The translations under genes and the position numbers were made by a program. DNA of 64,000 nucleotides from Acidobacteriota bacterium. Lineage in GTDB: Bacteria; Acidobacteriota; Thermoanaerobaculia; Gp7-AA8. Positions 21,707-51,203 of the stretch are shown here, piece after piece. Under the pieces are notes generated by a model. It was not told where the DNA came from. It ran no database searches and saw only the letters and a list, made by a program, of their open reading frames with translations. Location: contig JAFATB010000026.1 in the NCBI GenBank assembly GCA_019244185.1, positions 64,001-128,000 on the forward strand, written 5' to 3'. Position 1 is the stretch's first letter. Each line of letters starts with the position of its first letter.

Positions 21707-21712
21707 CGAGTC

Positions 21713-22828: not shown

Positions 22829-22831
22829 GCC

Positions 22832-27100: not shown

Positions 27101-27153
27101 TCGCGGAGCTTGTCGATCAGATGCCGTTCAAGTTCGGTTTCGGATGAAGTCAT
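24133..27153 (-). CDS. hsdR: Type I restriction endonuclease subunit R
   Basis: RYD...LINGVP.VQIELK, WHTTGSGKT, DECHRSQ, GFTGTP, IVVDMLLTGFD, QAFSRTNR. Confidence 0.97.
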   Translation of the reverse strand: MTSSETELERHLIDKLRELKYEHREDIRDRAALEKNFREKFQALNRVTLTDGEFHRLLDEITTPDVFTAAKTLRVMNSFTRDDGTPLNYTLVNIRDWCKNSFEVVNQLRVNTDNSHHRYDAILLINGVPAVQIELKTLGINPRRAMEQIVDYKNDPGSGYTRTLLCFVQLFVVSNRDSTWYFANNNIRHFSFNADERFLPVYQHAAEDNTKITHLDGFAERFLAKCTLGQMISRYMVLVASEQKLLIMRPYQIYAVKHIVQCIEQNDGNGYVWHTTGSGKTLTSFKASTLLKDNPGIEKCLFVVDRKDLDRQTREEFNRFQEGCVEENTNTGALVRRLLSDDYADKVIVTTIQKLGLALDEGSRRNVQRKIDGRKTYAEMLEPLRDKRMVFIFDECHRSQFGDNHKAIKSFFPQAQLFGFTGTPIFEENATVRQVAGEEQTLRTTEDLFQRSLHEYTITHAIDDGNVLRFNVEYYKLPDGTPVKPGETIAMRAVIDTILDKHDAATADRKFNALLATASIDDAIEYYEGFKRMQAERQAAHPRFVPLKVAAVFSPPGDVSADVRQIQEDLPQERADNQQHPEEKKEALEAIIADYNARYGTNHAIGEFDLYYQDVQKRIKDHQFPNADLPKKGREKIDLTIVVDMLLTGFDSKYLNTLYVDKNLKHHGLVQAFSRTNRVLNASKPFGHILDFRGQQAAVDEAIALFSGARADRAREIWLVDKAPMVIEKLEAAVRRLDAFMKSQGLQIRPEDVPNLRGDDARMVFVKQFKEVQKLQTQLDQYTDLTESEKGTIQRILPREQLRGLRGAYLETAQRLREQQAKRAGDGEKSSPDLDQLDFEFVLFASALIDYDYIMNLIARFTGQDPKQKLRISREALIGLIESDAKFMDEREAITQYVRTLEAGRPMNEGAVRADYAAFKAERDAREIAAIADKHTLTAESLQSFVETIVGRMIFDGEGLTTLLAPLDLGWRARTEKELALMEDLVPLLKKRAGGREISGLSAYEG

Positions 27154-27409: not shown

Positions 27410-27424
27410 GAATGAAGCACTTAA

Positions 27425-27474
27425 TTTGGCGGGGCCGACGGGGCTCGAACCCGCGACCTCCGGCGTGACAGGCC
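27425..27474 (-). repeat. Exact 50-bp copy of the tRNA-Asp 3' end (att site of the inner element)
   Basis: Identical to 53166-53215. Confidence 0.95.
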
Positions 27475-27560
27475 CGTGGTCGCGGGTATTTAGAGAGGGA
27501 GCGTTCTACACGGGGTGGGATAACTCGCTGATTCCGAGGGGGTTAGCGATTCCAAATCCC

Positions 27561-27603
27561 GACCTTGCGAGTCACCTTGCGAGTTTAGTGCGACTCGCAA
27601 GGT
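27561..27603. repeat. Putative integrase arm-binding sites (ACCTTGCGAGT twice direct, once inverted)
   Basis: gACCTTGCGAGT cACCTTGCGAGT at 27561-27584 and ACTCGCAAGGT at 27593-27603; the same tandem recurs at 53073-53096. Confidence 0.7.
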
Positions 27604-29970: not shown

Positions 29971-30957
29971 TCCCGGCCGAAGCTGCGCCGCCGTCGTTTT
30001 CATTTTTAAGTGCCCGCCGCTCGCTTTCACGTGACCGCTGCTCACTTGAAAGTGATCGCGCGTCGCTTACTTCTCGTCTGGAGGACAGTGAAAGTGGTCG
30101 CGCGTCGCTTTAATCTCAACTTGAGGACAGTTGCACGTGCCCGAGCGTCGCTTTTATATGTTCGCGCGGCACTTTCATTCGGCGGCAGCACGCGTGAAAG
30201 TGTTGGCTGGTCACTTTCGCGAGCTCGCCGGCGTTCGCTCTACCGGCGGCCGGCCTGATCGCGCAAGTGTCCGAGGGACTCTACTCCAGGTAGAGCCGGC
30301 CGCGCGCCCCCCGCGCGTCGCGCCCGTTGCTTCGCAACGGTCACGCCGCGCTGCCCACCCCTGGTGGAACCTCCACAGGCCGTAGAATCCCCCGCGCTCC
30401 CCCCGCCCGTCACGTCCGTTGCCTCCGCAACGGCCGCGCCGGGCTTCCCTCCCCGGGGGCTTCCCGCCGCCAAAAGCCACGAGAGGCGTTACCTGCCTTT
30501 CGCATCCAGCGCGTGCACGATAGCGCATCGAGGCTTCGGGTAAGACATAAGCGCGTAAAACATCCCCTTACCCTGTAAGGGTGTCGTTCCAGCCAAAAGC
30601 CCTACCTACGACCGTCGCCCGTTTTCGTGCCACAGTTTCCTTCTTCAGCCCCAAACTTCTCAGTTTTGAGGTCTGGAAGCTTCTCAAACTTGTATGCTTA
30701 AACACCATAAAAAGACGGATAAGCGGCCTAAAATTAAGTCTTTAAGAATCAAGGCGGGGGACAAATAATTGACCCTCGTTACAATTTGGTAACGAACCAG
30801 ATTTGCGGATGTAACGTATCTTAGGCGCAGGTCCAGACCGCTACTCAGTTGCTGCAGCAACGATCGCCCGCCTCGTTTCGGCCGAAACGAGGCCGGTAAC
30901 ACGTAGTCACCGCGCCGCCCGCGCGTGGCGTGCGGCTAGGTGAGGAAGGACTGGTGT

Positions 30958-31675: not shown

Positions 31676-32836
31676 ATGCCGAACATACCTCAGAAGTATG
31701 TCTGCGGCGCCATCCCGCCTCACATCCTGACGCGGGTTGCCGAGCACACCTCCAACGAAGCAAGCGGCACCGCCCGCGCGACGCTCGAGCACATGCGCGA
31801 GCTCGCCACGGGTCGCGCCGCATCGCTTCTCCAACGACCCACCGAAGTTGCGGCCACGGCCGTCTCCACGCGGAAACGTCGCAACGTCTACACCGCTAAC
31901 CACACTCTCCGTCTCCCCGGCAAACTCGTGCTCAGCGAGCACAAGGCCCGCGGCACGGATGTCGAAGTCAACGAGGCTTACGACGGCAGCGGTTCGACGT
32001 ACGATTTTTTCGCCTCCGTCTTTCGGCGATCCTCCATCGATGGCAGGGGAATGCGTCTCGACTCCACCGTGCACTACGGCGAGTCCTTCGAGAACGCTCT
32101 CTGGAACGGCCGTCAGATGGTCTACGGCCACGCCGATGGACGTATCTTCTCGCGCTTCACCGCGTCCGTCGATGTGATCGCCCATGAGCTCACGCACGGT
32201 GTCACGCAGTTCGCTGCGGCTCTCGGGTATCACGGTCAGACCGGCGCGCTGAACGAGCACCTTTCCGACGCCTTCGGAATCATGGTCAAGCAGTGGTTGC
32301 TCGGCCAGACCGCGGACAAGTCGGACTGGCTCATCGGCGCGGAAATCTTCGGCCCCGCCGTGAACGGCGTCGCCGTGCGTTCGATGGCTGCACCGGGCAC
32401 CGCCTACGACGATCCGCTCCTGGGCAAAGACCCGCAGCCCTCGCACATGCACGACTACGTCGAAACCACCGAAGACAACGGCGGCGTCCACATCAACTCC
32501 GGCATTCTCAATCACGGCTTCTACCGCGCGGCGATCGCGCTCGGCGGCAGGACGTGGGAGGTGCTGGGGCGCATCTGGTACGTCGCGCTCACGGACCGCC
32601 TTCGACCCGAAGCGGACTTCGCCGACTTCGTTCAAGCCACCGTCGACATTGCCGGGGAGTTGTACGGCATGGGCGGCAAGGTGCAACGGATCGTCGCCGA
32701 GGCTTGGTCGGACGTGGGCCTGTTCGTCCTCCACGTCGGGTGTGCGACGCAGCACATCCCCATCAAAAAGCCGCGCCAGCGCGCAGCCGTCGTCGCCGCA
32801 CGGACGCTTCCGTCGCGTCGCCGGCCGACGCGCTGA
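31676..32836 (+). CDS. M4 family metalloprotease, protealysin-type (short propeptide)
   Basis: IPPHIL propeptide motif, NALWNG.QMVYG, HELTH, GALNE..SD, DNGGVHINSGI.N. Confidence 0.93.
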   Translation: MPNIPQKYVCGAIPPHILTRVAEHTSNEASGTARATLEHMRELATGRAASLLQRPTEVAATAVSTRKRRNVYTANHTLRLPGKLVLSEHKARGTDVEVNEAYDGSGSTYDFFASVFRRSSIDGRGMRLDSTVHYGESFENALWNGRQMVYGHADGRIFSRFTASVDVIAHELTHGVTQFAAALGYHGQTGALNEHLSDAFGIMVKQWLLGQTADKSDWLIGAEIFGPAVNGVAVRSMAAPGTAYDDPLLGKDPQPSHMHDYVETTEDNGGVHINSGILNHGFYRAAIALGGRTWEVLGRIWYVALTDRLRPEADFADFVQATVDIAGELYGMGGKVQRIVAEAWSDVGLFVLHVGCATQHIPIKKPRQRAAVVAARTLPSRRRPTR

Positions 32837-32889
32837 CCGGCTCTCACTTTCCACCATCACCTGACATCTCTCGAAAGGAGATCGCTCAC

Positions 32890-33231
32890 ATGAGCACGAA
32901 TCCCAAGGAACTGAATCCCCTCGAAGCATCCAAAACCATGATCGAGAAGAGCAAGCGCTCGACCGATCGCACACTGCGCGCGCTCAACCTCGACATGGAG
33001 CAGGAGAACACGCTCGTGCAGGACACGCCGAACGGCCGCCTGCAGAAGGTGCTGAAGATCTGGCGCGGCATCAAGCCGGTGTTCGCCGTCATCGGTTCGC
33101 TCCCCCTCATCCCGTCCACCTGGCGCGGCGCCATCGTCGTCTTCACGCAGGCGCTCGACGCGCTGACCGCCATCGGCGGCGACATCACGGCCGAGTTCAA
33201 GGCGGGCAAGGACCTCGCGGAGCAGGAATGA
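32890..33231 (+). CDS. Small hypothetical protein with a hydrophobic segment, ending ...EFKAGKDLAEQE
   Basis: AAAGGAG RBS, ATG at 32890; stop overlaps the next ATG. Confidence 0.75.
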   Translation: MSTNPKELNPLEASKTMIEKSKRSTDRTLRALNLDMEQENTLVQDTPNGRLQKVLKIWRGIKPVFAVIGSLPLIPSTWRGAIVVFTQALDALTAIGGDITAEFKAGKDLAEQE

Positions 33232-33488
33232 GCACCGTCCGCAAAGTCGCTCGCAGTGCCTCGTCCGGCCGGTTCATTTCCGCTCGCGACGCGCGCCGCT
33301 GGCCGCAATACACGGTCGTCGAGACGATCAGCTATCCGTCTCCTCGTCGTGTCGGCCGCCGGCGCTCCGCGCGTCACCTCACCGAGGAGAACCAGATGGA
33401 GCGGCCGTTCAAAGCCGGCAGAGACCTTCGCACCGGCGCGAAGAAAAAGCGCGCCACGTCCGAGTTCAAAGCCGGCAAAGACATCTGA
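33228..33488 (+). CDS. Small basic protein; internal RBS and ATG at 33396 could yield a 30-aa peptide with two FKAG[KR]D[LI] motifs
   Basis: R...SGRFI....A.R.P..TVVETI motif; GAGGAG at 33384 before MERPFKAGRDL...EFKAGKDI. Confidence 0.6.
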   Translation: MSTVRKVARSASSGRFISARDARRWPQYTVVETISYPSPRRVGRRRSARHLTEENQMERPFKAGRDLRTGAKKKRATSEFKAGKDI

Positions 33489-33553
33489 CCCATTCACGCA
33501 GTTGACCGGTGGGGCGCGCGTTCGCGCGCGCTCCACCACTTCGGAGGGCAATC

Positions 33554-34213
33554 ATGAACGTTCAGCAATACCCGCTCAAAAAGGGCCAATACTTCTCAGA
33601 CCTCACCGCCAAGAAATTCGTCGTCTGGCACGGCACGGCCGGCCGCACGCTGCACACGCCGGTCTCCGGCCGCCCCGGCAAAGCCACAACGTCGATCGAC
33701 GCGTGGAACCTCAACGCCGATCGCGTCGGCGCTCCGTGGCTCGTCGATCGCGACGGCTCGATCTACCAGACCTTCAACGACTCCGCGTGGATTTTCCATC
33801 TCGGGCTCAAGGGCGTGAAGGGGCTCTACGACAAGCAATCCGTCGCGATCGAGTTCGCGAACGAAGGGCCGCTCGACCTGGACGGCGACCGCCTCTACGC
33901 CTTCGGCATGAACACGCCGAACACCATCTACAACGGGCCGTTCATCAACCACGACTGGCGCGGCTTCAGCTACTTCGCGCAGATGGACGAGGCTCAAGTC
34001 GATGCCGGGATCGCGCTCACGCTCGACATCTGCCAGCGCCACAAGATCGAGCCGGTCTTCTACTACCCGTCAACCACATTCGACTTCCCGCGATGCTTCC
34101 AAGTCGCCACGATCATCTGCCACTCCAACTGCCGCGCCGACAAGACCGATCTCTGTCTGCCGCAATGGGTCTTCGAGAAGATCGAAGCGGCCGGCATTCG
34201 CATCGCCTCATGA
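33554..34213 (+). CDS. N-acetylmuramoyl-L-alanine amidase (Amidase_2-like)
   Basis: VVWHGTAG, VDRDG.IYQ, W.FHLG, S..IE..NEG, ICH...R.DKTD; GGAGGG RBS. Confidence 0.85.
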   Translation: MNVQQYPLKKGQYFSDLTAKKFVVWHGTAGRTLHTPVSGRPGKATTSIDAWNLNADRVGAPWLVDRDGSIYQTFNDSAWIFHLGLKGVKGLYDKQSVAIEFANEGPLDLDGDRLYAFGMNTPNTIYNGPFINHDWRGFSYFAQMDEAQVDAGIALTLDICQRHKIEPVFYYPSTTFDFPRCFQVATIICHSNCRADKTDLCLPQWVFEKIEAAGIRIAS

Positions 34214-34527: not shown

Positions 34528-36024
34528 TTAGCGCTTGCTATCTCGTTTTAGCAGCGCCCACAGGGACTCGCCTCGCCGGGTCAAACTTTGTTGATTATCA
34601 TGTAGTGCGACAAGGCCGGGTCCCAAACGTTGCAGTATCCTGCCGATGCCGTCCGGATTCTCTGCCCTCGCAATCTTAGACTTTAAGGAGCGTCGGGCCG
34701 CGCTCTCCCGGTGTCGACCAGCGCGAAGCGTGGCAACAGTTTGGTCGATGTTGTTGAGAAACGCCGTAATGTCGGAGTGATTTACAAGGTGAGCGTCGCA
34801 AATTAGTTTACCGAAGACGGCCGCACCATATGCATCGTCTCGCCGCGACGTCTCGTCGAACTTAAGCGGCTCGACCTGTGAGTTATCACGTGAGCGAGCT
34901 TTAGCACGGAGAAGACGAACACTTGACCTTGACGAAACGTTCAATATTGCGAATGGTCGTCCAAGCTCATGCGATGCTCTCATTACAGTCGCGAGCCCCT
35001 CAAGTGTGCGGCAGCCGGTGTATACAATCGGGGAGTAGATCTCGTCTAGAATTGGCGCAACAATCTTGGCTTCAACTATATCCTCACCGGCCATTTCAAA
35101 TAGTGCATCGGCCAGATCGAACATCGACGCGTAATCTGAGGCCGACTGTCCAAGAGCTGTGGCGGCCGCAGCTAGTGCCGTGCTTCCTTCGACGTGATAG
35201 AAGCCTCGATGTAGCGCGAGATAATGACCCAGAGACGTCTTGCCGGCGGCAGTACTTCCGATCACAACTAGAACAATATCGTTCGCGTCTTGCGGGAAAA
35301 TGGTCAACTGCGCAGGATTGCGTCGCGCTGACATTGAAGCATGCCGCGTGCTAGCTGCTGGCAGATTGAGGATCGAGGCATATTCCTCTAGCCGCTCGCT
35401 GAGCTGCTTCAAGCTATTCACACGGAAGTCGTACCGCAACGACTCCTCTAGCTCCAGAGCGGCGAGAACCGTCTTCGCGCCTTCCGGCACGAACCACGAG
35501 CTGAAATCCTGCCGCCCGAGCCATGGATATAATGGATTCTGCCGCACCTCGGGCACCGTATCCGCGACAACACCGCGCGTGGTACCTGAAAAGATAGGAA
35601 AGTCCGGAAATAGACCCGGAACGTATAGTGCGATGTCCGAGGAAACGGTGACACGCTTGTCGCCACCGGCGGCATTCAGTGCTGATAGTAGTTCGTCGTG
35701 TGTTGTTTCGGCGAACCACTCTTTTGTGGCCTGTCCTGGGTAGTCAGCCCCCCTTCCGAGTGCAGGAATGCTGACGGTCGTGTCTTCGATGAACACGATT
35801 CCTGTGGCACCCGCTCGCGATACGACCTCATCTAGACCTGCCTTAAGAAATGCTCGCTTAGGCAAACCGTATGGTTCGACATATGGCTCGCGGTGAGCTT
35901 CCAGCAGTTCAACGTCGAAGCCACTCGACTGGAGAATTAGTCGCGCTTGCAGGAATTTGGGTATATTCGATGTCGAGAACCGAATCGGAGCAAGGCGAAT
36001 CGCGCGACGGAGGTATCGGTTCAT
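34528..36024 (-). CDS. HAM1/ITPase-like pyrophosphatase fused to a P-loop nucleotide kinase domain
   Basis: N-terminal F.TSN..KF, FIEDT...I.AL...YPG..TK.W, FSG.T.G.V; C-terminal VIGSTAAGKT...GCR. Confidence 0.8.
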   Translation of the reverse strand: MNRYLRRAIRLAPIRFSTSNIPKFLQARLILQSSGFDVELLEAHREPYVEPYGLPKRAFLKAGLDEVVSRAGATGIVFIEDTTVSIPALGRGADYPGQATKEWFAETTHDELLSALNAAGGDKRVTVSSDIALYVPGLFPDFPIFSGTTRGVVADTVPEVRQNPLYPWLGRQDFSSWFVPEGAKTVLAALELEESLRYDFRVNSLKQLSERLEEYASILNLPAASTRHASMSARRNPAQLTIFPQDANDIVLVVIGSTAAGKTSLGHYLALHRGFYHVEGSTALAAAATALGQSASDYASMFDLADALFEMAGEDIVEAKIVAPILDEIYSPIVYTGCRTLEGLATVMRASHELGRPFAILNVSSRSSVRLLRAKARSRDNSQVEPLKFDETSRRDDAYGAAVFGKLICDAHLVNHSDITAFLNNIDQTVATLRAGRHRESAARRSLKSKIARAENPDGIGRILQRLGPGLVALHDNQQSLTRRGESLWALLKRDSKR

Positions 36025-36998
36025 GCCGGCCCGTTATAGATTTCCAGCTCGTGACCGGCGTTTTGAAAGTCGTACGGCCCGCTGAGATCAATTCCACGCA
36101 ACACTTCGGTGATTCGCGCAAAAGAGCCACGCCCATGGACGGCAAAGACGGTTGGTCCTAGGCTACTTAACCCGGCGGGAATTCCGGCCTCCCACAGATG
36201 CTCGATTGCTACACGGACCGCCTGCGGCTGTGCTGCAATCTCACGGGCTTTGAACCCCTTAACCTGAAATCGGCGCAAGGACAGCCCGAATTGGTCGAGG
36301 TCAGTCTCAAGCAGCGCCGGAATCATTCCATGGAACACATCTGCAATTTGCTGCAGAGTATCGGTGTCGGCAGTGGGCGTATTCTTCTCAAAGAAGCTGC
36401 GCTCGCTGCCAGGGTTGACGGTTGGTGGGTCGTTGACGAAGGCTAGACTGACGTTCCAGTCGGTCGGCATCTCCCAGCGGCCGAGGAATAGGGATGGTGA
36501 CCGTCCTTCCGGCGCGATCGAAGGAAGGTACGACGTGGTTCGGCTACCGCCTGGCTGTCCGGCGTCTACTATCAATCCACCAAGGAAGAATCCGTTGCAC
36601 CCTATCGCAGATGTTCGTCCGCGCCCGCTCAGTCGGATCAGTTCCCGGCTGTCAATCGTCCAGCGATTTAAAACCGCCAGCGCCTTCATCACCGCGAGTG
36701 TCGTCGCTGTCGTTGAGCCGAGGCCTACGTGGCCGGGTGGTCGTTTCAACACAGTTACACTGCCTGACAGTGGGAGTCCGCTCGCGCGGGCGCGCAGCGC
36801 GGCGTCACCTACCTTCGTTTCCTCGTCGCCGTGACTTGGCCCAAGATCAAGCGCGAAGCTTGAGTCCGCTCGACCCTCGACACGTACTTCCGGCCCGCGA
36901 AAATGCGCGCCGATACCACCGTACGATCGGCCCGTCGCTCCAGCAAGATCTGTGAGCCCGAAATGAAGTCGCGGGTACGCGACCACCGATACCTTCAC
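36021..36998 (-). CDS. Beta-RFA-P synthase / C-glycoside synthase-like GHMP-superfamily enzyme
   Basis: PRLHFGL.DL...R.YGGIG, P.HVGLGSTT, GRGRTSAIG...F..GG.IVDAG, GFKAREI, GLSS.GPTVF. Confidence 0.88.
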   Translation of the reverse strand: MKVSVVAYPRLHFGLTDLAGATGRSYGGIGAHFRGPEVRVEGRADSSFALDLGPSHGDEETKVGDAALRARASGLPLSGSVTVLKRPPGHVGLGSTTATTLAVMKALAVLNRWTIDSRELIRLSGRGRTSAIGCNGFFLGGLIVDAGQPGGSRTTSYLPSIAPEGRSPSLFLGRWEMPTDWNVSLAFVNDPPTVNPGSERSFFEKNTPTADTDTLQQIADVFHGMIPALLETDLDQFGLSLRRFQVKGFKAREIAAQPQAVRVAIEHLWEAGIPAGLSSLGPTVFAVHGRGSFARITEVLRGIDLSGPYDFQNAGHELEIYNGPA

Positions 36999-37771
36999 TT
37001 GTGGCTCCCGGGTGCACGAGAGAGCTTCTCGCTCGTAAATATCTCGTCAAAGTGATCGACCAACCGGTCGAACATATACCCGGGCCGCTTTACAATCATT
37101 GTCGGCAAGTTGCGACTGGCTCTTCCGAATCGAGACGAGGACACAAGGTACGGTCCCCAAAATGCCTCATCGTCAATGCGAAACATGTTCACACTGGGAA
37201 GTGTCGTAGCGAGCCGCAACTCGAAATTACTGTCACTCCGAGACCACAGGGGTTGCGTGTCAGTTATGAAGCGTAATACCTCGGCGCGCGTACGGCCCGA
37301 GGTATTCGATTCCTCCATGTCACGTATGTCCACATACCTGCTATTCGATCTCGGAGCGTCTGGATCTACCAACAAGATGCGTACACGTGCACGGGTGGCC
37401 CATTCTGAGAACTGGTCGAGGAAATCCTCTCGCAGTGCGTTTAAACCGAAGCCCATCACATCAATCGACTGCGAGGCTGCACGCAGTCTGCGCTGATACT
37501 CGTCTTTGATCTGGATCGAACGATGCGGGAATGCTGTCACAAAACCAAACGCGTCTAATACTCTTCGACGGTCGGCCTCGGCTTCGTCGAATACGACCCA
37601 ACCAAAGACGACCATGCCACCTACGCCTGTTGCAATCATCGACGTGCCGACAGCGACACCTACAGGCCCCATCGTGGCAATGAGAGCGCCCACCAGGACA
37701 AGAATCAACTGCAGCGCCATATACAGCAAGAACCGTGAGCTCTGCAGTCGTCTGGAAATCCCAACTTTCAT
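36995..37771 (-). CDS. Two-TM membrane protein with a DUF5919/PLD-like cytoplasmic domain
   Basis: Two N-terminal hydrophobic helices; IDVMG..L, VRILLVDPD, P...MFRIDD...GPYL...P......F.....HFD. Confidence 0.7.
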   Translation of the reverse strand: MKVGISRRLQSSRFLLYMALQLILVLVGALIATMGPVGVAVGTSMIATGVGGMVVFGWVVFDEAEADRRRVLDAFGFVTAFPHRSIQIKDEYQRRLRAASQSIDVMGFGLNALREDFLDQFSEWATRARVRILLVDPDAPRSNSRYVDIRDMEESNTSGRTRAEVLRFITDTQPLWSRSDSNFELRLATTLPSVNMFRIDDEAFWGPYLVSSSRFGRASRNLPTMIVKRPGYMFDRLVDHFDEIFTSEKLSRAPGSHK

Positions 37772-38763
37772 TCCGGGCTCTCCTCGCTGTGAGTAGTGCT
37801 GGTCATGATTCGATAGCCATCTGTCGTCGTGGTTATTGTCGAGTGAATGAAGCCCGCTCCGTTGAGCAACTCAGCCAACTCGCGATCGGTACGTTCTCTG
37901 CCTCCGAAGAGGATATGCATGTCGAGATCGCGAGAAGAATCAGCCAGATCACGGGGGTTCCAGCGTCGTTCGATGATGAGTAATTCAGAGCTGTGGTCTA
38001 GCGTTTGCCGGCATCGTCGGAGCAGGCCGAGGGCGTCTGCATCATCCAAATTGTGCAGAATGCTTCCAAGTATGTAGATTCCTGCGCCCGTCGGCATGCG
38101 GTCGCTAAAGTCGTCCTGAAGTACGTCGATACGTTCGCGTAGCTCGGGCGATGCCGTCCGCACTAGCCATCCTGCGTCTTCATAGCAATCGAAGACGACA
38201 CCCCGCCAGTCAGCGGGAAGCTGGCTGAGAAGGTCGATGGCGTAGTGACCTGGCCCACCCCCAATATCGGCGATCAGTCGGGCCATTTTTGGCCTTGGAT
38301 ATATCGCGAGTTCTTTGGTCCTGCGCCGGATCATGTGTTCATCGAAGGCTCGCGACAAGATGGGGTCGGACCGGATCTCGCTCCACGTTCGCAGAGCAGG
38401 TTCCGCAGGCGAGCCCCGAGTATCCAGTAGTATTTCGCCGAGTTCTCGACGCTTAAGGTAGAGGTACCTCGTGAGTGGGTCAGGCGATGTCCGATCCGAC
38501 TCCAATCGTGCACGAGCGATCGGGAGCAGCGCTACGATTTGCGGCTGCAGCTTGACGGGCCCGGGAGGAGGGGATTGCACCAACTGCAGGAGTTCGAGAT
38601 GCCGTAGGACAGCGAGTGAAAGTTGCTGCAAAGAGTGGTGCAGAGTGTTAGGCGAATTCAGACGGGTTACCACCTGGCCGTTTTCGAAAGCCAGAACAAC
38701 GTACGGCGCCAACGGATCAACCCGTATGGCACGAATCAACTCCTCAGCATTAACTAGAGTCAC
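37768..38763 (-). CDS. SAM-dependent methyltransferase (O-methyltransferase type 2-like)
   Basis: ADIGGGPG, VVFD, DDF, ILHN.DD......L..C...L, D..M....GGRERT..E...LL..AGF. Confidence 0.88.
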   Translation of the reverse strand: MTLVNAEELIRAIRVDPLAPYVVLAFENGQVVTRLNSPNTLHHSLQQLSLAVLRHLELLQLVQSPPPGPVKLQPQIVALLPIARARLESDRTSPDPLTRYLYLKRRELGEILLDTRGSPAEPALRTWSEIRSDPILSRAFDEHMIRRRTKELAIYPRPKMARLIADIGGGPGHYAIDLLSQLPADWRGVVFDCYEDAGWLVRTASPELRERIDVLQDDFSDRMPTGAGIYILGSILHNLDDADALGLLRRCRQTLDHSSELLIIERRWNPRDLADSSRDLDMHILFGGRERTDRELAELLNGAGFIHSTITTTTDGYRIMTSTTHSEESPE

Positions 38764-38775
38764 GAGAGATCGCTG

Positions 38776-39012
38776 TTAGCTTCCGCGGATCTTCCGGAGC
38801 AACTCGCTCAAAGACTCGACTCCCTCGTCTCTGAGCACGTTTCCCAGTTGCTTATCGCTTCTGACGCCAAGATCCACGTGGTACATCTCCTCGATCGTCC
38901 CGGCCTGTGTGTCGCTTCGCTTCCGCCGGAGCGTCCCTTCGTCGGTGCGGCCGCGCTCGCCGCTCATGCTCGGATCGTCGTTGCGAACAGATGGCGCTTT
39001 TCGGTGTGACAT
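38776..39012 (-). CDS. Small hypothetical protein (R..G.LR.KR.DT..GT...Y...GVRSD..L type)
   Basis: AAGGGG RBS; stop lies 12 bp upstream of the methyltransferase start. Confidence 0.65.
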   Translation of the reverse strand: MSHRKAPSVRNDDPSMSGERGRTDEGTLRRKRSDTQAGTIEEMYHVDLGVRSDKQLGNVLRDEGVESLSELLRKIRGS

Positions 39013-39162
39013 CTGATTTCCCCTTGAAATTGATGTGTCGGCCACGAGGTGCGAAAGCTGTTCGATTCGATTCACTTCGGGCCGCTTGACATCATGCCAT
39101 CCGTCATGGAGAATGTCAACGTTCACGTCAATGTGATGATGAACGCGCGAAAGGATCTCCTA

Positions 39163-40428
39163 ATGGATATGCCGCTCACGCCTCGCCTCATCCATGCTGT
39201 TCCGCCGCAACTCGGCACCTATCTTCGGCCGAACCGCGTTGATCACAAAGCGCTGCTGGCGTTCATCGCCGAAGGCACTCCGGCCGGTCTCGAAGGCATC
39301 GTTTTCGACCCGACGCTCGACTCGATCCATACCGAGCTCCGCGACGAGGCTCGAGAGCGGAAGATCGAAGCGGTTCTCGATACGCGTGCGATGGAGCTCG
39401 CGCTCGAGGGCGGATACGTCGGCTCGCGATGCGCGCTGCCGTGGGCAGGTGAGGAGATGCACCGAACGGACAGCCTTCGCGGCGAAGCTGGCCGTGACTG
39501 CGCGAAACGGATCACCGACTGGATGGCGCCGCGCCGCTACTGCAGCGTCCTCGCGCCCACGCACTACCTCGCGGCCGGCGCCGCCGATCCCTGGTTCGCA
39601 GTCGACCGCGACTTGACGATCGCGCTGCGCGCCGCGCTCGATGCCGCCGGCCTCGCTGCCGTCCCCATTTACTATCCGCTCGCGATCAAAGGCGAGGCGT
39701 TTTTCGATGCTCGTCAGCGCGAGCAGTTCCGGCTCGCCCTCACTTCACTTCCGGTCGATGCAATCTGGCTCCGTGTTCAGCCGTTCGGCTCGCGAAGCGG
39801 CGGCAACGTCGTTCGCAAATACATCCGCGCCTGCGCCGATCTCCATTCGTCGGCTCTGCCGCTCGTCGCGGAGAAGTCCGGCACAACCGGCCTCGCGCTC
39901 CTCGCGTTCGGCGCTGTCGGCGGCATCGAAAGCGGCATCACGATCGGTGAGCACTTCGACGCCAACAGTTTGATCTCGCGTCGCGAAGGCGGCAAACCGT
40001 TCACGCCTCAAGCGCGCGTCTACATCACCGCTTTGCAGACGTTCATGTCGAAGCAACAGGCGCGGCCTTTCTTCGATAACCGCACGTTGCGCACCTATTT
40101 CGCCTGCAAGGATCGCTGCTGCCCGCGCGGCTCCGACGACATGATCATGTATCCGAAGCGCCACTTCCTCCTCCGCCGCACCGCCGAGATCAGCCGGCTG
40201 AGCGCTTTGCCGGAAACTGTACGCGCGTCGCGCTACATGGAAGAGATTCTCCGCCCCGCCACTGACCAGATGGCGAAAGCCGTTAAAGCAGCGGAACATC
40301 TGGAAACGACACGTCAGCGCCTCGACATGCTGCGCAGTGTGCTCGGCGCGATCCTCGAAGACTCACAGCCGGTCAGCTTCTCGGCTGTGCCGGAGGGCAA
40401 ACGAATTCAGACACGGCGCGGCGCCTAA
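39163..40428 (+). CDS. Uncharacterised putative TIM-barrel protein with a C-terminal Cys/His cluster
   Basis: Alternating beta/alpha pattern (AVLDT, VLAPTHY, IYYPL, IWLRV, GIESG) and C-x3-CC...H; fold is inferred. Confidence 0.6.
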   Translation: MDMPLTPRLIHAVPPQLGTYLRPNRVDHKALLAFIAEGTPAGLEGIVFDPTLDSIHTELRDEARERKIEAVLDTRAMELALEGGYVGSRCALPWAGEEMHRTDSLRGEAGRDCAKRITDWMAPRRYCSVLAPTHYLAAGAADPWFAVDRDLTIALRAALDAAGLAAVPIYYPLAIKGEAFFDARQREQFRLALTSLPVDAIWLRVQPFGSRSGGNVVRKYIRACADLHSSALPLVAEKSGTTGLALLAFGAVGGIESGITIGEHFDANSLISRREGGKPFTPQARVYITALQTFMSKQQARPFFDNRTLRTYFACKDRCCPRGSDDMIMYPKRHFLLRRTAEISRLSALPETVRASRYMEEILRPATDQMAKAVKAAEHLETTRQRLDMLRSVLGAILEDSQPVSFSAVPEGKRIQTRRGA

Positions 40429-40469
40429 CCATCTATCCAAAATCTGTGAAACGGAAAGGTTGTGTAACC

Positions 40470-40808
40470 ATGGCTTCAGCACTTGCAGAACGCCTCGACA
40501 AAATCAAAGAACTCGGGGGGATCACCGGGCGCGACGTCGCGCAACTGCTGGACACAACGCCTGAAACGGTCTCGCGTTGGAGTACGGGCAAGATTGATCC
40601 ACAACGCGAGAGGCTACAGCGCCTTCTCGAACTCGAATTTTTTCTGACGGAACTCTCGGAATTCTACTCGCCAGAGGAAGCGAAGCTCTGGTTGTTCAGT
40701 CCCCACAAATCGCTCGGCGGTGAAACGGCGGCGGCGCGCATTCAGGCCGGCCGAACGCAAGACGTGTTTACGCTTCTCGATCAGCTTCGTTCCGGTGCCT
40801 ACATCTAG
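40470..40808 (+). CDS. Xre/MbcA/ParS-type antitoxin (HTH plus toxin-binding domain)
   Basis: DVAQLL.TTPETVSRW..G; WL..PH..LGG....I..G....V..LL..L..GAY. Confidence 0.85.
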   Translation: MASALAERLDKIKELGGITGRDVAQLLDTTPETVSRWSTGKIDPQRERLQRLLELEFFLTELSEFYSPEEAKLWLFSPHKSLGGETAAARIQAGRTQDVFTLLDQLRSGAYI

Positions 40809-41327
40809 ATGATCTATCCGCCGGACATGTTGGACATCTTGCAATCCGCACGGGCGTCGGCATGGTCCGGCACCGTGTACCGCCACATGTTCGGCTCGTA
40901 CCCGCCGGCCCGTAGCAACACGACCGGCGCTCGCTGGAACGATACGAACCTCGAAGCCATTTACACGAGTTGCGAGCGAGAAACCGCGTTGGCGGAAGCC
41001 GAGTACCACATCGCGATGCAGCCACTTCGACCGCGCGCGAAGCGAACGCTGTACACCATTAACGTATCGCTCAAAAACGTTCTTGACCTCACCGTACCCG
41101 GCCTGCTCGATCAACTCGGGATCACTGCCGACGTTCTCTCCAGCACCGATCACACTCCATGCCGCACGGTCGGCGGTGCCGTGAACTGGCTCGGCCACGA
41201 TGGCCTGCTAGTGCCGTCCGCGCGGCGCATCGCCGGTACAAACCTAGTGATCTTCCAGCAGGATCTCTCAACGACCGAGTTTGAAGTCACAGCCGAAGAG
41301 GTAGTCGCTGAAGACGCTCGGCTGTAG
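40809..41327 (+). CDS. RES-domain toxin (putative NAD+ phosphorylase)
   Basis: VYRH, GARWN...IYTS...TALAE, DGLLVPSAR...NLVIF. Confidence 0.9.
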   Translation: MIYPPDMLDILQSARASAWSGTVYRHMFGSYPPARSNTTGARWNDTNLEAIYTSCERETALAEAEYHIAMQPLRPRAKRTLYTINVSLKNVLDLTVPGLLDQLGITADVLSSTDHTPCRTVGGAVNWLGHDGLLVPSARRIAGTNLVIFQQDLSTTEFEVTAEEVVAEDARL

Positions 41328-42126: not shown

Positions 42127-43032
42127 GTGCGTGCTATCGAGCGCCTCGCCCGAGCTATCATCGGAAAGCGATCGCGCGTAGCATCACAGCGGACTCCACC
42201 GCCCGCGCCTCAGGCAGCCATGTTTCGAGCTTTTTTTGATGAATCTGAAGTCGATCCTGTCTACCTGGTAGCCGGCTGGGTGGCATCCGCGGAAGAGTGG
42301 ACTAAATTCGATATCGCGTGGAATGCAGCGCTAGCGGCCGATTCCTCCATCCGATACTTCAGTCATCATGATGCGAAGATGTTGAAGGGCGAGTTTGAAG
42401 GGTGGTCGAACGAAGACACTCAGACGAAGCTCGATGCGCTCGTGAAGGTGATTTGCGATCACGAGATGTACGGCGTTACGACCGGCCTCAACACGACGAC
42501 GTGGAGGCAGGCATTCCATTCAGAGCTCAGTCGTAAGCGGTTAAAGGGCATTCTTAAATTTACGCACCACTACCAGTCATGTTTTCACAGCGCTGTCGCG
42601 ATGGTGATGCAACGGCAGCTAGAGTTGGGCCACACGTCTGACGTCGTTGATCTGGTGTTCGATCAGCAAGACGGCCTCTTGAAAGACAGCATCAAGCATT
42701 ACTCGAGCTTTAAAAGCTCATTTCCTCCCGCAGTGCAAAAAATCGCAGGCGAGATTTCGGTCGGGAACGACAAGAACACCCCTGCTCTCCAAGCCGCCGA
42801 TCTTCTGGCCGGCCAGTTAACGACGATGTTGAAGTCTGGACCGGGCCCGACGTATAAAACGATCGTGAAGTGTCATCAGGTGATACACGCGAAAGCCTAT
42901 CCTCCCCAATTCCAGACGTTCCCCGCGATCATCAAAGCGGTCAGTTGGGCATGGACCGAGAAGCGCACGCTAGATGCACAGATTGCCGCGGAGGACGAGC
43001 ATTCACCCGACAAGAAGAGGAACGACAAGTAG
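42127..43032 (+). CDS. DUF3800 (RNase H-like) domain protein
   Basis: AFFDES...YLVAG, LVFD, LQAADLLA; alternative start at ATG 42220. Confidence 0.8.
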   Translation: MRAIERLARAIIGKRSRVASQRTPPPAPQAAMFRAFFDESEVDPVYLVAGWVASAEEWTKFDIAWNAALAADSSIRYFSHHDAKMLKGEFEGWSNEDTQTKLDALVKVICDHEMYGVTTGLNTTTWRQAFHSELSRKRLKGILKFTHHYQSCFHSAVAMVMQRQLELGHTSDVVDLVFDQQDGLLKDSIKHYSSFKSSFPPAVQKIAGEISVGNDKNTPALQAADLLAGQLTTMLKSGPGPTYKTIVKCHQVIHAKAYPPQFQTFPAIIKAVSWAWTEKRTLDAQIAAEDEHSPDKKRNDK

Positions 43033-43624
43033 CGTCGTGGTTGCATTCGCACCCGTGGACCAGCCTCTAGGGGAGCCCCACATCACTTATAAGCGACCCG
43101 GCCGCAAAATCGGCTGCGGCGGGCTCGAAAACGGCTACCGTGAGCTCCAAAACACTCCCCGGAGCATCATTTAGGCCTTCCGCGGCATCACCGCGAAGTG
43201 CCCCGCGGCCGAAAAATCGTGCCCGGCATCACCCGCGAGTCCCCGGAGCCGATTTTTACGACCCCGGGGCCCGTTTAGCGATCACCGAGCATCGCCGCGA
43301 CGCCACCACCGCCCACTTAAAAGCGATCCGACATCGATGGCGCGCGAAGCCCGATCTCTGCCATTCATGTCGTCCCGGCTCGAAACCACACCCCATCGCT
43401 TTAATCCGACTCGCGCGCACATCACGCCGGCAACGCGCCGGATCACGCCGACGACGCCGCAAGCGATTACGACGGCCGCTCACTTCATGCAGAGTCCCGC
43501 GCAACGCGAAATCATCGTGCGCGAACGCAAAACCATCGCGCATGACTTCCACGCGATCCGCGATCGATTTCCGATGCCCGGCAATCGAATAGCGCTCGCG
43601 CGACTCCGCCCACCCACGCCGCGG

Positions 43625-44215
43625 CGTCACGCCTCTTGCACGCTCGTACCGCGATGAAGCGGCCGTACTTCGCCCGCAACGGTCGCGCCGCCGCGGCTCC
43701 CGCCCCCGCGAGTGGCACGTTCTGCGCGGATGCCACACCCGCCCGCCCTCGCGTCACGCCCGTTGCATGCTCGGACCGCCATGAAGCCGCCGTACTCGCG
43801 GCAACGGTCGCGCCGCTTTCCCCCGCGCGAGTGGCACGCGCATCGCGGACCGCCCGCCGGCCCGCCCGCCCTCGCCGCGACACGTCCGTTGCCTGCCGCC
43901 AGCTGCGGTTAACGTTCGTGCATCGCGTGCAACCGACGTGTCGCGGCTCCCGCCCGCGCAGATGCCATCTGTTGCGCGATCTGCTCCGGTCCCTGCCGCG
44001 CCGCGTCACGTCCGTTGCCGGCCACCAGCTGCGATTACCGTTCGTTCAGCGCGTGTAACCGACGTGACGCGGCTCCCACCCCGCGAGTGGCGCGTGCATC
44101 GCGACCGCCACCCTCCCGCCCTCGCGCGTCACGCCCGTTGCACGCTCGCGGCTCGCTATCGCTCGCCGCCTCGCGCCGCAACGGTCGCGCCACGCTCCCG
44201 CCCCCGCACGTGGGG
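43625..44215. repeat. Five degenerate units of about 125 bp, each a CGTCACGYCCGTTGC...GCAACGGTCGCG hairpin
   Basis: Unit starts at 43625, 43752, 43878, 44004 and 44127. Confidence 0.75.
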
Positions 44216-44267
44216 GAGTTCGTCGCCGAGGATCACCGGAACGCCGCCGCCCTTCACCTCTTTTGCC

Positions 44268-44851
44268 TCACGTCCCGCGACGATGAAACAGGTCCGCCGG
44301 CCCTTTCTTCTGCGAGTACTCCGCATGCTTCACCTTGAACCACTCTGTTGTCATCGCGTACGGGTCAGCGCCACGTCTCGCGACGATCCCCTCGAGGTCC
44401 ATCTTCGTGACTGCGTCAATCAACCGGGGATCGTCGGTAGCCTCGACGGTTTGCACCTGGCCGCTTCTCACAACTTTCTCGAGCTCGTGTTTTCGCCGAC
44501 GCAGCGGCAGCGCTCGAAGGTCACTTCCGTTCAACCACAACACATCGAACGCCACATAACTCGCCGGCTTTCGGTCATCATCAGCGAGGAGAAGTCCGGC
44601 CGCCCTTCTCTCATGACCACAATCTCGCCATCGAGGATTACATCGCGGGCGGGGAGCTCCCGCGCGATCGCGTTCGCCAGCGCATCGAAACGTCTCATCG
44701 GCTTCTTCGTCTTCGACAAGAACCGCCCGCGCTCATCCTCGACATACAACGTTCCGCGGAACCCATCCAGCTTCAACTTATATAGCCAATCACGTCCGCG
44801 AGGGACATCACGAACGAGCTTTGGCAGAATGGGATCGGTCTGCGGCAGCAC
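44268..44851 (-). pseudogene. Frameshifted ATP-dependent DNA ligase adenylation domain (LigD/LigC-like)
   Basis: KLDGFR and LDGEIVV in one frame; AFD.LWLNG.DLR..PL..R, EGIVA and W.KVK in another; shift near 44570-44580. Confidence 0.8.
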
Positions 44852-46365
44852 GCGATTACACCCCGATCACTTTTAAGGCACCGGCTATCACTGATGCTTG
44901 TCCCATAGTCACTATCCCCGCGCTGCCTACTGTGCTTTTTTTGTTCCGTCCACAGCCCACCCATCACGCAACTGCTCGTTGCATGGCGGTGTGCCGCGCG
45001 ACGTCGCCCGCTGCGTGCTAACACCTCAGCGGCGTCGCGCGCATCGTACCGAGTTTCGTTTGCGTATCCGCACGCTCTACACGCGGTAGCACGCGCCCCC
45101 TCGCCGCGTCACCGCTTTGCAGAGCGGGTTGTACAAACAGGCGCGGCCCATCCGCAAAAGCGGCGCCGCGGCTGCACGCCCGCCCTCGTCGTTCGGTTCA
45201 CTCGCTCATTCACGTTCGCTTCCCCTCCCATGCGCGGTCACGCCGTTTGCAGCGGGTGTTTCTATCGCGGCTGCACCTCCATCGCGGGCAAACGTCGCGC
45301 CCGCGCCCCGGGGAACCTCAAAGGAATGACATTGCTTTGCCGCCCGCCGCCCGGTCCCGCGAGCTCGCCACGCCCGCGTCCGAGGATCCTCGCGAAGGCC
45401 CGCGGCGCGTCACGCCGTTTGCAGTCGCGCGCGAAAAGGAATGCGTCAGTGCGCGCAGCAAACGGCGCGCCACGCCGCTCCTGCATCGCCTGTTGGTTCG
45501 CGCATCCCGGCATCACGTTTCCGCCCGTTCCCGTGGCTCGAGCGCGCGTCGCCTGTGGCTGCGCCTAAGGCCGCCGCTGAAGCTGTCGTGGCCCGCTTCT
45601 CCGTGGCTTCGCGCGTTTCCACGCGCTCGGTTTTCGCAAGCAGGGTAGGGCACTGCTGCGAATCACTTTCAAGCGGTCCACGCAGCTTAGCGGAGCCTTA
45701 GGCGCGAACGGTTTGTCGCGGCCGCACGTTTCCACCGCCCAACCCTTCGGCTTCACGTGCAGCGTCGCCGCGATACCGCGTCGCGGCTGCACGTTTCCCC
45801 CTCGCCGCGGACGCTGCGCCAGGCAGCGCGCCCACCACACACCCTCCCGCGCGGCTGCCGCGGCGCAGCTCGCGGGCCGCATGCGGCGCTGTCGCTGCCG
45901 CAAGCGTCCCGCGCCGCGGCTCCCACCCGGCGCCGCGCCCTGCTCGCTGGGCCGGGCGGCTAATCGCCGCCCCGGCCCAGCATTGCAGGGTTTCCCATTC
46001 GGCGGCTGCGCTCTTGCGACTTCTTCGTCTTTGCGCAGCAGCCTCGCGGTTGCAACAGCGGCATGCCCGGAACGCCCCGCGCTTCGCGCGTTGCGTTCCT
46101 CGTCGTCGATCGCAACCGCATCGGCGCGGCACGCTCCGCCACCCTCGCCGCGCCGCGTGCGCTCGCCTTCGGCTCGCGCACCGCCGCTCCGCGCGACTGC
46201 GGCCGCCCACCGCCCGCGCCCCCTGCCGCCGCAGTCGTGCTCCGCGGCCCGGCGCTTCCACCCTCCCGCCGCGGAACCCAATTACCGTCCGCACCCCCTC
46301 ACATCCGCGGACGGCAATTCGGTTCCGCGGCCCCCGGCGCCGGCGGCGCGGCTCCCGCCCCGGAG

Positions 46366-46650
46366 CTACGCCACCCGCCCATCCTCCGGTGAGACATCGA
46401 CCCACGAGATGCTCCCGCTTCGATGCTCGATGCGTTTCTTCCCGAGGACGTGATGGCCTGCGATCAACTCGCACGTCTTGCCACCGAACAGGCGCGTCTT
46501 CGCTCCGCACGTTCCGATCCGATCGCGCAGTTGCTCCATCTTTCGTCGCGCCGCGTCTTCGCTGAGGGCTGTTTCGTCGAGGTCCGGCCGGCCGTCGATG
46601 TAGCCGTGCCATTTCGATCCGACCTTCTTCGTCGTGATTTCCGCATTCAT
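46366..46650 (-). CDS. Small hypothetical protein
   Basis: 94-aa ORF with protein-like composition amid GC-rich non-coding repeats. Confidence 0.5.
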   Translation of the reverse strand: MNAEITTKKVGSKWHGYIDGRPDLDETALSEDAARRKMEQLRDRIGTCGAKTRLFGGKTCELIAGHHVLGKKRIEHRSGSISWVDVSPEDGRVA

Positions 46651-47302
46651 CGTCGAAAAGCCTGTGGATAAATGGAGCGCGAGGTCAACGATCGCGCGTT
46701 CTGCCGCGGTGTGGAGCGCAATGCACAGCCACTTGTTCTACCGCGAGTGGACGCGCGCGGAGGTGTCGGTCACGTCGAAGGCGCGATCATCGCGCGGGGA
46801 GTGAGGCCGCGGCTCCGCTGATGCGTGACTTGCGCTCGAAGCACATTCGTCGTGAGTGGTTCGCTTGTGTTTTTTTGTTTCGCCCACGGCCCGCCCATCA
46901 CGCAACCATTCGTGCCATCGGGCGCGCACCGCAACCCTGCTCGCCTCGGCGCGATCCACCAGGTGTAGATCGCGCGCCCCCTCGTGGCGTCACCGTTTTT
47001 GCAGAACGGTCGGATGAAACCGGCGCGGCCCAGCCGCAAAACCGGCGCCGCCACTTCCCACCCTCCCATCGCCTGTGGGTTCGCATCTCTCGGTCGCACG
47101 TTTCCCCCGCCCATGCGCCGTCACGTCGCTTGCAGCGGGTGTCCGTATCGTGCACGCGCATCTCTCGCGGGCAAGCGCCGCGCCGGCGCCCCCCCACAAA
47201 AATGTCCTATCGCGGCGCGCACATCGCACGGCGGGGTAGGGAAAACCGCGCTCGAATCACTCCTTAAATAACGACAGATTCTGTCGAGGAAAAGAGGGCA
47301 AT

Positions 47303-51048: not shown

Positions 51049-51203
51049 GATTCTCAATGATGATAGCACTTGATTTCTCAGAAGTGAGAACTTATAATTT
51101 CCCCTTGACAGGTGATCGATGGTCGAGCGCATTTCAGGAAGAATCGGAACGAAGCGTCGCTCAGTCACTTTCACCCCTGCCGCGCCGAGTAAGGGGAGGC
51201 TGC

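Follow-up and report, generated by a model that had tools for sequence, protein, structure and literature searches.

A four-gene operon on the minus strand (34528-38763) of a 64,000-nucleotide stretch of DNA from an Acidobacteriota bacterium (assembly GCA_019244185.1, contig JAFATB010000026.1, positions 64,001 to 128,000; this whole stretch is hereafter called the window) carries a compact cassette which, in our assessment, is probably an undescribed abortive-infection-type (most plausibly anti-phage) system that signals via a C-nucleotide derived from phosphoribosyl pyrophosphate (PRPP) and optionally includes a methyltransferase. We assign this reading a probability of roughly 0.55. In the open reading frame (ORF) list of the window, the four genes were packed end to end, with a fifth small ORF preceding them:

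37768..38763, minus strand: S-adenosylmethionine (SAM)-dependent methyltransferase (PF00891 class), 331 amino acids (aa), first gene of the operon
36995..37771, minus strand: predicted sensor-effector with two transmembrane helices (2TM) and a phospholipase D (PLD)-fold domain, 258 aa
36021..36998, minus strand: GHMP-fold enzyme of the ForT/ribofuranosylaminobenzene 5'-phosphate (RFA-P) synthase family, 325 aa
34528..36024, minus strand: fusion of a HAM1 domain, a nucleoside monophosphate (NMP)-kinase-like P-loop domain and a winged-helix-like tail, 498 aa
38776-39012, minus strand: small co-oriented ORF of 78 aa, separated by a 12-base gap from the methyltransferase gene downstream of it

At the junctions of the four genes (ATGA, GTGA and ATGA), each start overlaps the preceding stop by 4 bases, which confirmed for these four ORFs the co-oriented, overlapping arrangement described in an earlier note on this DNA. 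The AT-richer block that the note had seen was likewise found, with a GC content of 0.54-0.60 at 34-39 kb compared with 0.64-0.65 directly upstream and 0.68-0.70 at both ends of the window. Family scans agreed with its domain calls of a methyltransferase (PF00891), an RFA-P synthase-like enzyme (TIGR00144) and a HAM1 plus P-loop protein (PF01725), while the gene of the 2TM protein returned no family match in the Pfam and NCBIfam scans.

A search with the HAM1-kinase fusion gave 28 homologue clusters, and their alignment was used for locus searches. This alignment recovered 27 loci in named genomes and 112 relatives on metagenome contigs, the analysis being continued with the best 80 of these; together with one Rhizobium locus (L109), one Cupriavidus locus (L110) and the window, 110 loci were available, and these collapsed to 90 non-redundant groups at 95% identity of the fusion protein. 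The order transmembrane protein, RFA-P-like enzyme and HAM1-kinase fusion was present in 23 of the 27 genome loci. In two others (L024 and L026) the transmembrane-protein homologue lies downstream on the opposite strand, and in the last two (L022 and L027) the HAM1-kinase match begins at the contig end, so that the upstream region is not visible. Among the best 80 of the 112 metagenome relatives, the RFA-P-like gene was directly upstream of the fusion gene in 75; three loci (L069, L076 and L101) showed the order divergent GHMP gene, sensor gene, fusion gene, and in two (L033 and L058) the sequence upstream of the fusion gene is merely 237 and 101 bases long. The GHMP enzyme of the three reordered loci reached only E 1e-14 to 1e-19 against the cassette RFA-P profile, and an N6_N4-type methylase lies nearby. 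The sensor gene was present in 61 of the 80 metagenome loci; in 18 of the other 19 the contig stops at the RFA-P gene or shortly before it, and the remaining one (L043) has 1460 bases upstream without a sensor gene.

When the ORFs of the 27 genome loci and the window were clustered all against all, only the trio was general and the flanks were unrelated, which indicates a unit of three genes with accessories. Co-occurrence outside the window, which the earlier note had proposed to look for by gene-neighbourhood analysis, was thus found, with about 90 non-redundant loci keeping the trio, and is far beyond chance. The five-gene operon of that note stands in part: the 78-aa ORF is a real gene, and the conserved unit is the three genes without it. 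The ORF has 76 homologue clusters (45-100% identity, mostly 66-90%) that form a family of 76-79-aa proteins, is preceded by a Shine-Dalgarno-like AAGGGGA and has a promoter-like site upstream at 39091-39119, and tblastn in the 114 other fetched loci gave no match to it; the protein family is real, conserved and independent of the cassette. Absence by tblastn from the same 114 loci also led us to reject, together with this ORF, the 459-aa divergent neighbour and a nearby amidase as parts of the system.

The named hosts belong to at least six phyla and comprise Actinomycetota, Chloroflexota, Myxococcota, Acidobacteriota, Alpha-, Beta- and Gammaproteobacteria, and Verrucomicrobiota; versions from Pseudomonadales (L010), Bradyrhizobium (L019) and Saccharothrix/Amycolatopsis (L003/L004) are among them. 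The fusion protein also matched four plasmid or chromid records, two from Rhizobium and two from Cupriavidus, with a very divergent transmembrane sensor in the Rhizobium locus. Within the genus of the host, 3 of 34 other genomes carry a version, at merely 34-35% identity; no full-length match was found in 26 sampled genomes from other genera, nor any match of the sensor profile in 400 other genomes sampled from the phylum. The window version is closer to Actinomycetota versions (41-48% identity), and this closeness, together with the patchy spread, argues for horizontal transfer; the cassette spreads horizontally among many soil bacteria. The GenBank phage collection contained no match to the HAM1-kinase. 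A copy of the cassette (L116, the same contig range as L081) was present on a 35-kb contig from a viral-contig collection.

The membrane protein was the best conserved member of the trio, with 60-65% identity to L002-L005 compared with 41-48% for the fusion protein. Its AlphaFold2 (AF2) model (predicted local distance difference test, pLDDT, 87.5) showed helices at residues 3-31 and 36-75, with conserved glycines G28, G42 and G52, followed by an alpha/beta domain at residues 77-250:

~37592-37732, minus strand: two N-terminal transmembrane helices (AF2 model)
~37022-37543, minus strand: cytoplasmic non-catalytic PLD-fold domain (AF2 model, Foldseek)

Foldseek matched it best to TrmBL2/TrmB, through their non-catalytic domain (E 6e-8); vaccinia F13, PLD3, FAM83, Nuc, NucT and phosphatidylserine synthase came next, with E 2e-5 to 1e-3. 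In 24 sequences R84, Y92, D104, D116, R131, E154, R198, D200, Y208, S219, R220 and T224 were invariant, four of them arginines, and no invariant or near-invariant His or Lys of a catalytic HxK(x)4D was found, so that there is no HKD motif; in a wider set of 30, only R, D, R, P and D were invariant. With regard to the 'TM-DUF5919-like' label given earlier, a transmembrane protein with a distant likeness was retained and the family assignment was not: relatives scored 12-12.5 and 19.5-21.2 bits against DUF5919 (PF19319), under the cut-off of 23.5, the window protein had no match even at E<=10, and one Atlas neighbour cluster carried DUF5919 on 31% of its members. The TrmB/TrmBL2 domain and DUF5919, both non-catalytic PLD-like folds, are the closest likenesses, as best structural matches and weak profile hits, respectively. 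The TrmB domain binds a sugar (PDB entry title 2f5t); in contrast to TrmB and TrmBL2, the cassette protein has no DNA-binding domain, and its PLD-fold domain is joined to membrane helices or effector enzymes.

The most informative result, and the strongest new evidence, came from the partners of this domain. Searched against 1.84 billion representatives, its profile matched 1952 proteins at E<=1e-3, of which 382 remained at E<=1e-10 and 94 at E<=1e-30. N-terminal partners were read from 30 longer hits among the 150 listed, two of which (P0043 and P0060) were merely over-extended 2TM forms, and the following fusions to the PLD-fold domain were observed:

P0066, P0141: patatin
P0068, P0078, P0111: SEFIR/TIR
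P0131, P0132, P0137, P0153: SIR2_2
P0063: DUF4062
P0050: cytidine deaminase
P0076: alpha/beta hydrolase
P0041: cyclase-like domain
P0098, P0110: metallophosphatase
P0124, P0146: GT4-conflict

The patatin half of P0066 was 31-35% identical to annotated phospholipases of CBASS. A replacement of the same kind occurs within the cassette itself, since L024 and L026 have a PGAP1/DUF676-type alpha/beta hydrolase in place of the transmembrane helices. In P0120 and P0128, a 2TM and sensor protein is joined to a P-loop domain; in P0128, this domain and the kinase domain of the cassette are homologues (hhalign 95%, E 3e-8). Ligand-activated effectors of signalling defence systems are marked by such a pairing of one constant domain with variable killing modules, and we infer from it that the PLD-fold domain would be the receptor of the cassette product; the swapping fits a ligand sensor with exchangeable effectors. 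The membrane effector proposed in the earlier note is in keeping with this comparative evidence, and the protein is in addition likely to be the sensor, a role that it had not been given. Tblastn searches of plasmids for the patatin, SIR2 and TIR fusions returned effector halves only, or nothing, and scans of viral contigs with P0066 and P0131 gave no match.

The enzyme encoded directly upstream of the fusion gene scored 154.1 bits with TIGR00144 (cut-off 113.5; 153.4 bits in the whole-genome search, also above the cut-off) and matched the ForT/PRPP complex 6yqq in the PDB with E 6.3e-16. In ForT, R19, T106 and R135 are essential for PRPP binding, and the GHMP loop H99-S104 and S139 contact PRPP (PMC8183095). 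R19, T106, R135, H99 and S139 of ForT align to R10, T97, R126, H90 and S130 of the window enzyme, and 25 cassette homologues keep R10 in 24/25, T97 in 24/25, R126 in 25/25, H90 in 25/25 and S130 in 25/25. Since the PRPP-binding residues are kept, a PRPP-using C-glycoside synthase of the ForT/RFA-P type is a well-supported assignment, and the enzyme is predicted, on the basis of its sequence, to be a PRPP-dependent C-ribotide synthase, which renders plausible the C-ribotide chemistry suggested in the earlier note. The cassette crosses phyla without base-building genes, which suggests a universal metabolite, p-aminobenzoate (pABA) or 4-hydroxybenzoate, as the acid that would be joined to PRPP.

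A methanopterin role was rejected. The methanopterin equivalog NF040726 gave 164.6 bits, under its cut-off of 328; the host genome (98.9% complete) has a single RFA-P-family gene; and methenyl-H4MPT cyclohydrolase (MCH, PF02289) had no match in that genome, with matches in the control archaea. The lack of a methanopterin context, which the earlier note had seen in the window, was in this way confirmed at the genome level, and the homologues found sit outside methanopterin operons. The cassette enzyme thus shares with the ForT, PyfQ and RFA-P (RHP) synthases the TIGR00144 family, the 6yqq match and the PRPP-binding Arg, Thr, His and Ser, and differs from them in its fixed linkage to a HAM1-kinase fusion and a membrane sensor-effector, without the partner genes of the formycin and pyrazofurin pathways.

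The fusion protein, modelled by AF2 with a pLDDT of 85.9 and a predicted template modelling score (pTM) of 0.86, consists of three parts:

~35371-36000, minus strand: HAM1/ITPase-fold nucleoside triphosphate (NTP) pyrophosphatase domain (PF01725, PH1917 profile match)
~34720-35283, minus strand: NMP-kinase-like P-loop domain (3lw7 match, Walker A)
~34549-34701, minus strand: winged-helix-like tail (secondary structure of the AF2 model)

The first part scored 32 bits with PF01725 (cut-off 22.5) and did not reach the housekeeping equivalog TIGR00042 (20 bits versus 145). A single-sequence PDB search with this domain gave chance antibody matches only, and a profile search was used instead, in which the family profile matched the ITPase PH1917 with E 4e-9 and IEDSGL aligned to FIEDTTV; the TSNxxK, Glu, IEDSGL/FIEDTTV, PG and C-terminal Arg motifs were all in register with PH1917. 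In 24 sequences T18, K23, E50, D81 and R201 were invariant, with D81 on the Asp of the IEDSGL motif, as was the Walker A of the second part (G256..G261-K262-T263). The kinase domain profile matched the SSO1041/AdkA-like 3lw7 with E 2.7e-21 and adenylate kinases weakly (~4e-5), and Pfam AAA_33 stayed below its cut-off (18.9 versus 27 bits). Foldseek template modelling scores (TM-scores) were 0.85-0.89 to ITPases, 0.88 to KomB and 0.82 to the AMP-bound SSO1041 structure 3lw7. Residues 442-492 form helix-helix-strand-strand-helix in the AF2 model and, from secondary structure alone, look like a winged helix. Genes for nucleoside diphosphate kinase (NDK) lie directly downstream of the fusion gene in four non-redundant loci (L007, L029, L031 and L032), which supports a path up to the triphosphate; phosphorylation by the P-loop domain, as put forward previously, is supported by these genes as well as by its NMP-kinase-like character.

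The earlier note had compared the HAM1 domain to KomB, the sensor of the Kongming system. According to the part of the Kongming report available to us (10.1101/2024.12.20.629578), KomB carries His at the position of the catalytic Asp and invariably occurs with the SIR2 protein KomC, the KomA component is an adenosine deaminase, and all defensive HAM1 proteins have this His and are tied to KomC. Both systems would combine a non-canonical purine-type nucleotide with a HAM1-fold protein in defence, and the cassette HAM1 superposes on KomB with a TM-score of 0.88. However, it keeps the Asp in 24 of 24 sequences and is fused to a kinase; the cassette nucleotide would be expected from a GHMP-fold synthase, and the effector would be a 2TM protein. 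No SIR2 or adenosine-deaminase domain was found in the seven ORFs scanned, and none was conserved in the 27 genome loci. With the catalytic Asp kept and no partner of the KomC or KomA type, membership of Kongming, as the available part of that report describes it, was rejected. The retained Asp and the lack of a KomC-type partner also lead us to read the HAM1 domain as a predicted active pyrophosphatase and not as a KomB-type sensor, a role that was not borne out.

In the mechanism that we favour, the synthase would join PRPP to a common aromatic carboxylate, for which pABA and 4-hydroxybenzoate are the obvious universal candidates, and would thereby form a non-canonical C-ribonucleoside 5'-monophosphate. 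The NMP-kinase-like domain would raise this compound to the diphosphate, and a cassette or host NDK would complete the triphosphate, which the fused, intact HAM1 domain would hydrolyse back to the monophosphate; as the HAM1 domain would reverse the phosphorylation, the fusion protein would control how much of the phosphorylated species is present. One phosphorylation state would be read by the arginine-rich, non-catalytic PLD-fold domain, and the 2TM protein that carries it would oligomerise, damage the membrane and stop the infected cell. The ligand may either activate the effector or restrain it, and candidates for the infection switch are the winged-helix tail, changes in nucleotide pools, a phage protein that blocks the pyrophosphatase, and loss of methylation. 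A more specific joint version is conceivable, although we hold it only tentatively: the immune messenger would be a C-glycosidic aryl-ribonucleotide, for which the GHMP-fold synthase would use PRPP and a universal aromatic acid, pABA for instance; its level would be set by the fused kinase/pyrophosphatase cycle and optionally tuned by methylation of an exocyclic group, and its reader would belong to a new superfamily of pseudo-PLD sensors, with TIR, SIR2, patatin and deaminase effectors also under their control. Such tuning would explain why amino-methylases and an O-methyltransferase swap at one operon position.

An undescribed nucleotide-signal defence system with a membrane effector, one of the possibilities raised in the earlier note, fits the synteny across phyla, the defence and mobile context and a sensor domain common to TIR, SIR2 and patatin proteins. 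In outline the cassette resembles CBASS, Pycsar, Thoeris or Kongming, with which it shares only the HAM1 fold and the effector repertoire. CBASS, Pycsar and Thoeris likewise combine an enzyme that makes a small molecule with a sensor domain carrying a swappable killing module, drawn from the same repertoire of 2TM, CapV-like patatin, TIR/SEFIR and SIR2 modules. The cassette, in contrast, lacks a CD-NTase, a cyclase and a TIR signal generator, and gave no PADLOC match; its predicted signal would be neither a cyclic nor an ADP-ribose (ADPR)-derived nucleotide. Instead of a sensor domain such as SAVED, CARF, STING, Macro or SLOG, the cassette would use a pseudo-PLD fold. The PADLOC check proposed earlier was consistent with an undescribed system, as none of the seven ORFs scanned matched the PADLOC-DB 2.0 models at E<=0.01. 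No description of the cassette was found in the portions of the literature available to us (supplements outside the scope), in which HAM1 anti-phage work concerned Kongming or consisted of reviews. As far as these searches show, within PADLOC 2.0 and the literature searched, both the class of signal-making enzyme and the sensor domain are new to defence biology.

Several observations weigh against a signalling defence system. The functional claims are all derived from comparative genomics and predicted structures, and no infection sensor can be named. The PADLOC blank is neutral for a new system, yet it also means that no known defence homology backs the defence call. All 61 sensor genes beside the HAM1-kinase in the metagenome loci are of the 2TM type, and the TIR, SIR2, patatin and deaminase fusions may use other partners and ligands; the PLD-fold domain itself might be a new kind of enzyme or a protein-binding adaptor. 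For a simple signal generator, it is unusual that the kinase shares a chain with a pyrophosphatase reversing its action. A DNA-type methyltransferase is present in half of the well-flanked loci, and these enzymes may tie the system to DNA modification rather than to a soluble signal. Finally, the neighbour counts behind the defence context are raw and without a matched background: by Pfam, the 119 nearest-neighbour ORFs of the other loci comprised 15 D12, 7 N6_N4, 6 DndB-like, 4 ResIII, 4 NDK, 4 PF00891, 2 HsdR-like and 2 AbiEii, and as these ORFs were the longest near each end (three short ones were dropped), some are spurious.

Among the alternatives, the one that survives best is a toxic nucleotide, according to which a C-nucleoside triphosphate would poison phage polymerases or metabolism, the HAM1 domain would protect the host and the membrane protein would be a regulator or failsafe. 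Prokaryotic viperins with adjacent nucleotide kinases are likewise defence cassettes that make a modified NTP with the help of a kinase; the cassette differs from them in lacking a radical-SAM enzyme and in having a dedicated sensor-effector and a fused pyrophosphatase. The synthase, the NMP-kinase-like domain and the NDK genes of four loci would lead naturally to an NTP analogue, the HAM1 domain is by its sequence catalytically intact, as expected of a sanitiser, and the known ForT and PyfQ products are antimetabolites according to the ForT report (PMC8183095). However, the 2TM/PLD-fold protein is the most conserved component and its domain is fused elsewhere to suicide-type effectors, which would be needless for a chain terminator, and maker and destroyer share one polypeptide; we consider this alternative rather unlikely.

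The methyltransferases are the main unexplained feature of the cassette, and may modify the nucleotide, be self-marking partners or be bystanders of defence islands. The window enzyme matched PF00891 with 64.9 bits (cut-off 22.3; E 8.4e-18) over residues 161-305. Window-type methyltransferases were found in 2 of the 27 genome loci and in 7 of all 110 (the window, L004, L005, L029, L030, L032 and L034), where the PF00891 homologues sit directly upstream of the sensor gene; the O-methyltransferase of the window is an accessory first gene in its clade, and methylation, which had been proposed as part of the system, does not belong to its core. Other loci have a D12 or N6_N4 methyltransferase at this position, or none, so that three unrelated families occur directly upstream of the cassette, co-directional with it and often overlapping; D12 genes also occur downstream, in either orientation. 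With hidden Markov models built from the loci, some methyltransferase was detected within 500 bp in at least 22 of the 44 non-redundant loci with a flank of at least 900 bp on both sides, a lower bound because the annotated L109 methylase was missed at the threshold used; methyltransferases were upstream in 17 of 57 loci and downstream in 13 of 56. In that Rhizobium plasmid record (L109), the annotated DNA adenine methylase overlaps the first cassette gene. In seven non-redundant metagenome loci (L041, L044, L050, L053, L061, L064 and L093), the cassette has a DndB-like protein of ~765 aa (DGQHR motif) beside it, usually paired with a D12 methylase; in L056 this protein is found at 3 kb. The DndB-like protein and the D12 methylase may form a separate two-gene, restriction-like module.

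In a further alternative, the trio would act as the guard or restriction-like arm in a module built around a DNA methyltransferase, or would supply or monitor a modified base for DNA modification. The methyltransferases within 500 bp in 22 of the 44 loci, often overlapping or co-directional and of several unrelated families, together with the L109 overlap and the DndB-like/D12 pair near seven loci, speak in favour of this alternative. Nevertheless, half of the well-flanked loci have no methyltransferase, the PF00891 enzyme used instead in the window clade is of a small-molecule type, the trio has no conserved nuclease, glycosylase, transglycosylase or polymerase partner, and methylases are common bystanders in defence islands; a methylation-linked role is unlikely. 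Small-molecule biosynthesis, in which the cassette would make a minimal C-nucleoside natural product or a cofactor-like compound (a methanopterin-type arylribosyl unit) with a membrane-anchored accessory protein, is very unlikely: the RFA-P synthase/ForT membership is solid and the window O-methyltransferase is of a natural-product class, but the genome has no MCH match and one RFA-P-family gene, the NF040726 cut-off was missed, no base-building, tailoring or export genes are conserved, which also leaves weak the minimal C-nucleoside pathway considered earlier, and the cassette is mobile, tiny and patchy amid restriction and toxin genes.

If the signalling reading proves correct, a C-nucleotide built by a GHMP-fold enzyme would be a chemically new class of immune signal beside the cyclic-nucleotide, ADPR-derived and dITP messengers, and a new, widespread sensor domain (1952 representatives at E<=1e-3) would explain many orphan TIR, SIR2 and patatin proteins. 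ForT-like C-glycoside synthases would gain a physiological role beyond antibiotic and methanopterin synthesis, and a compact enzymatic route would open up to C-nucleoside triphosphates, compounds of interest in nucleoside-analogue chemistry. Three or four genes suffice for a direct test of the hypothesis.

With regard to genomic context, the window has an intact tRNA-Asp gene at 53168-53244, the 3' part of which occurs in three copies (19905-19974, 27415-27484 and 53156-53225; 79-81% identity over 70 nt). These tRNA-Asp-derived repeats place the cassette inside an island of ~26 kb (27.4-53.2 kb), the second of two tandem islands inserted at tRNA-Asp, the first spanning 19.9-27.4 kb. A second repeat of 31 nt (27554-27584 and 53066-53096) lies beside the tRNA-Asp repeats. 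The following neighbours were recorded:

51057-52577: integrase-like gene, in the cassette island
40446-41327 and 42127-43032: pair of Xre/MbcA/ParS-type antitoxin and RES-domain toxin (40446-41327), followed by an unassigned 241-aa ORF and a DUF3800 protein, in the cassette island
39049-40428, plus strand: 459-aa protein, divergent from the operon, with no Pfam, NCBIfam or PADLOC family
20063-27153: type I restriction-modification operon (HsdM, HsdS, HsdR) with PrrC, in the adjoining repeat-bounded island

In the last of these, a PrrC-like anticodon-nuclease gene (21713-22828; PADLOC PrrC E 2e-138) is inserted between hsdM and hsdS. The Atlas model of the 459-aa protein is similar to uncharacterised proteins of actinomycetes and to the portion of some Ser/Thr-kinase fusions that lies outside the kinase. 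Just downstream of the cassette, on the other strand, 31676-34213 encodes a thermolysin-like protein, so called because its translation contains an HELTHGV motif, as well as an N-acetylmuramoyl-L-alanine amidase (Amidase_2). Dense imperfect direct repeats of 27-91 nt, with a core like GTCACG(C/T)CCGTTGC, were present at 43577-47192 and 30047-30424; they are spaced by ~120-130 nt, recur ~1.9 kb away and lie in GC-rich sequence with no clear gene.

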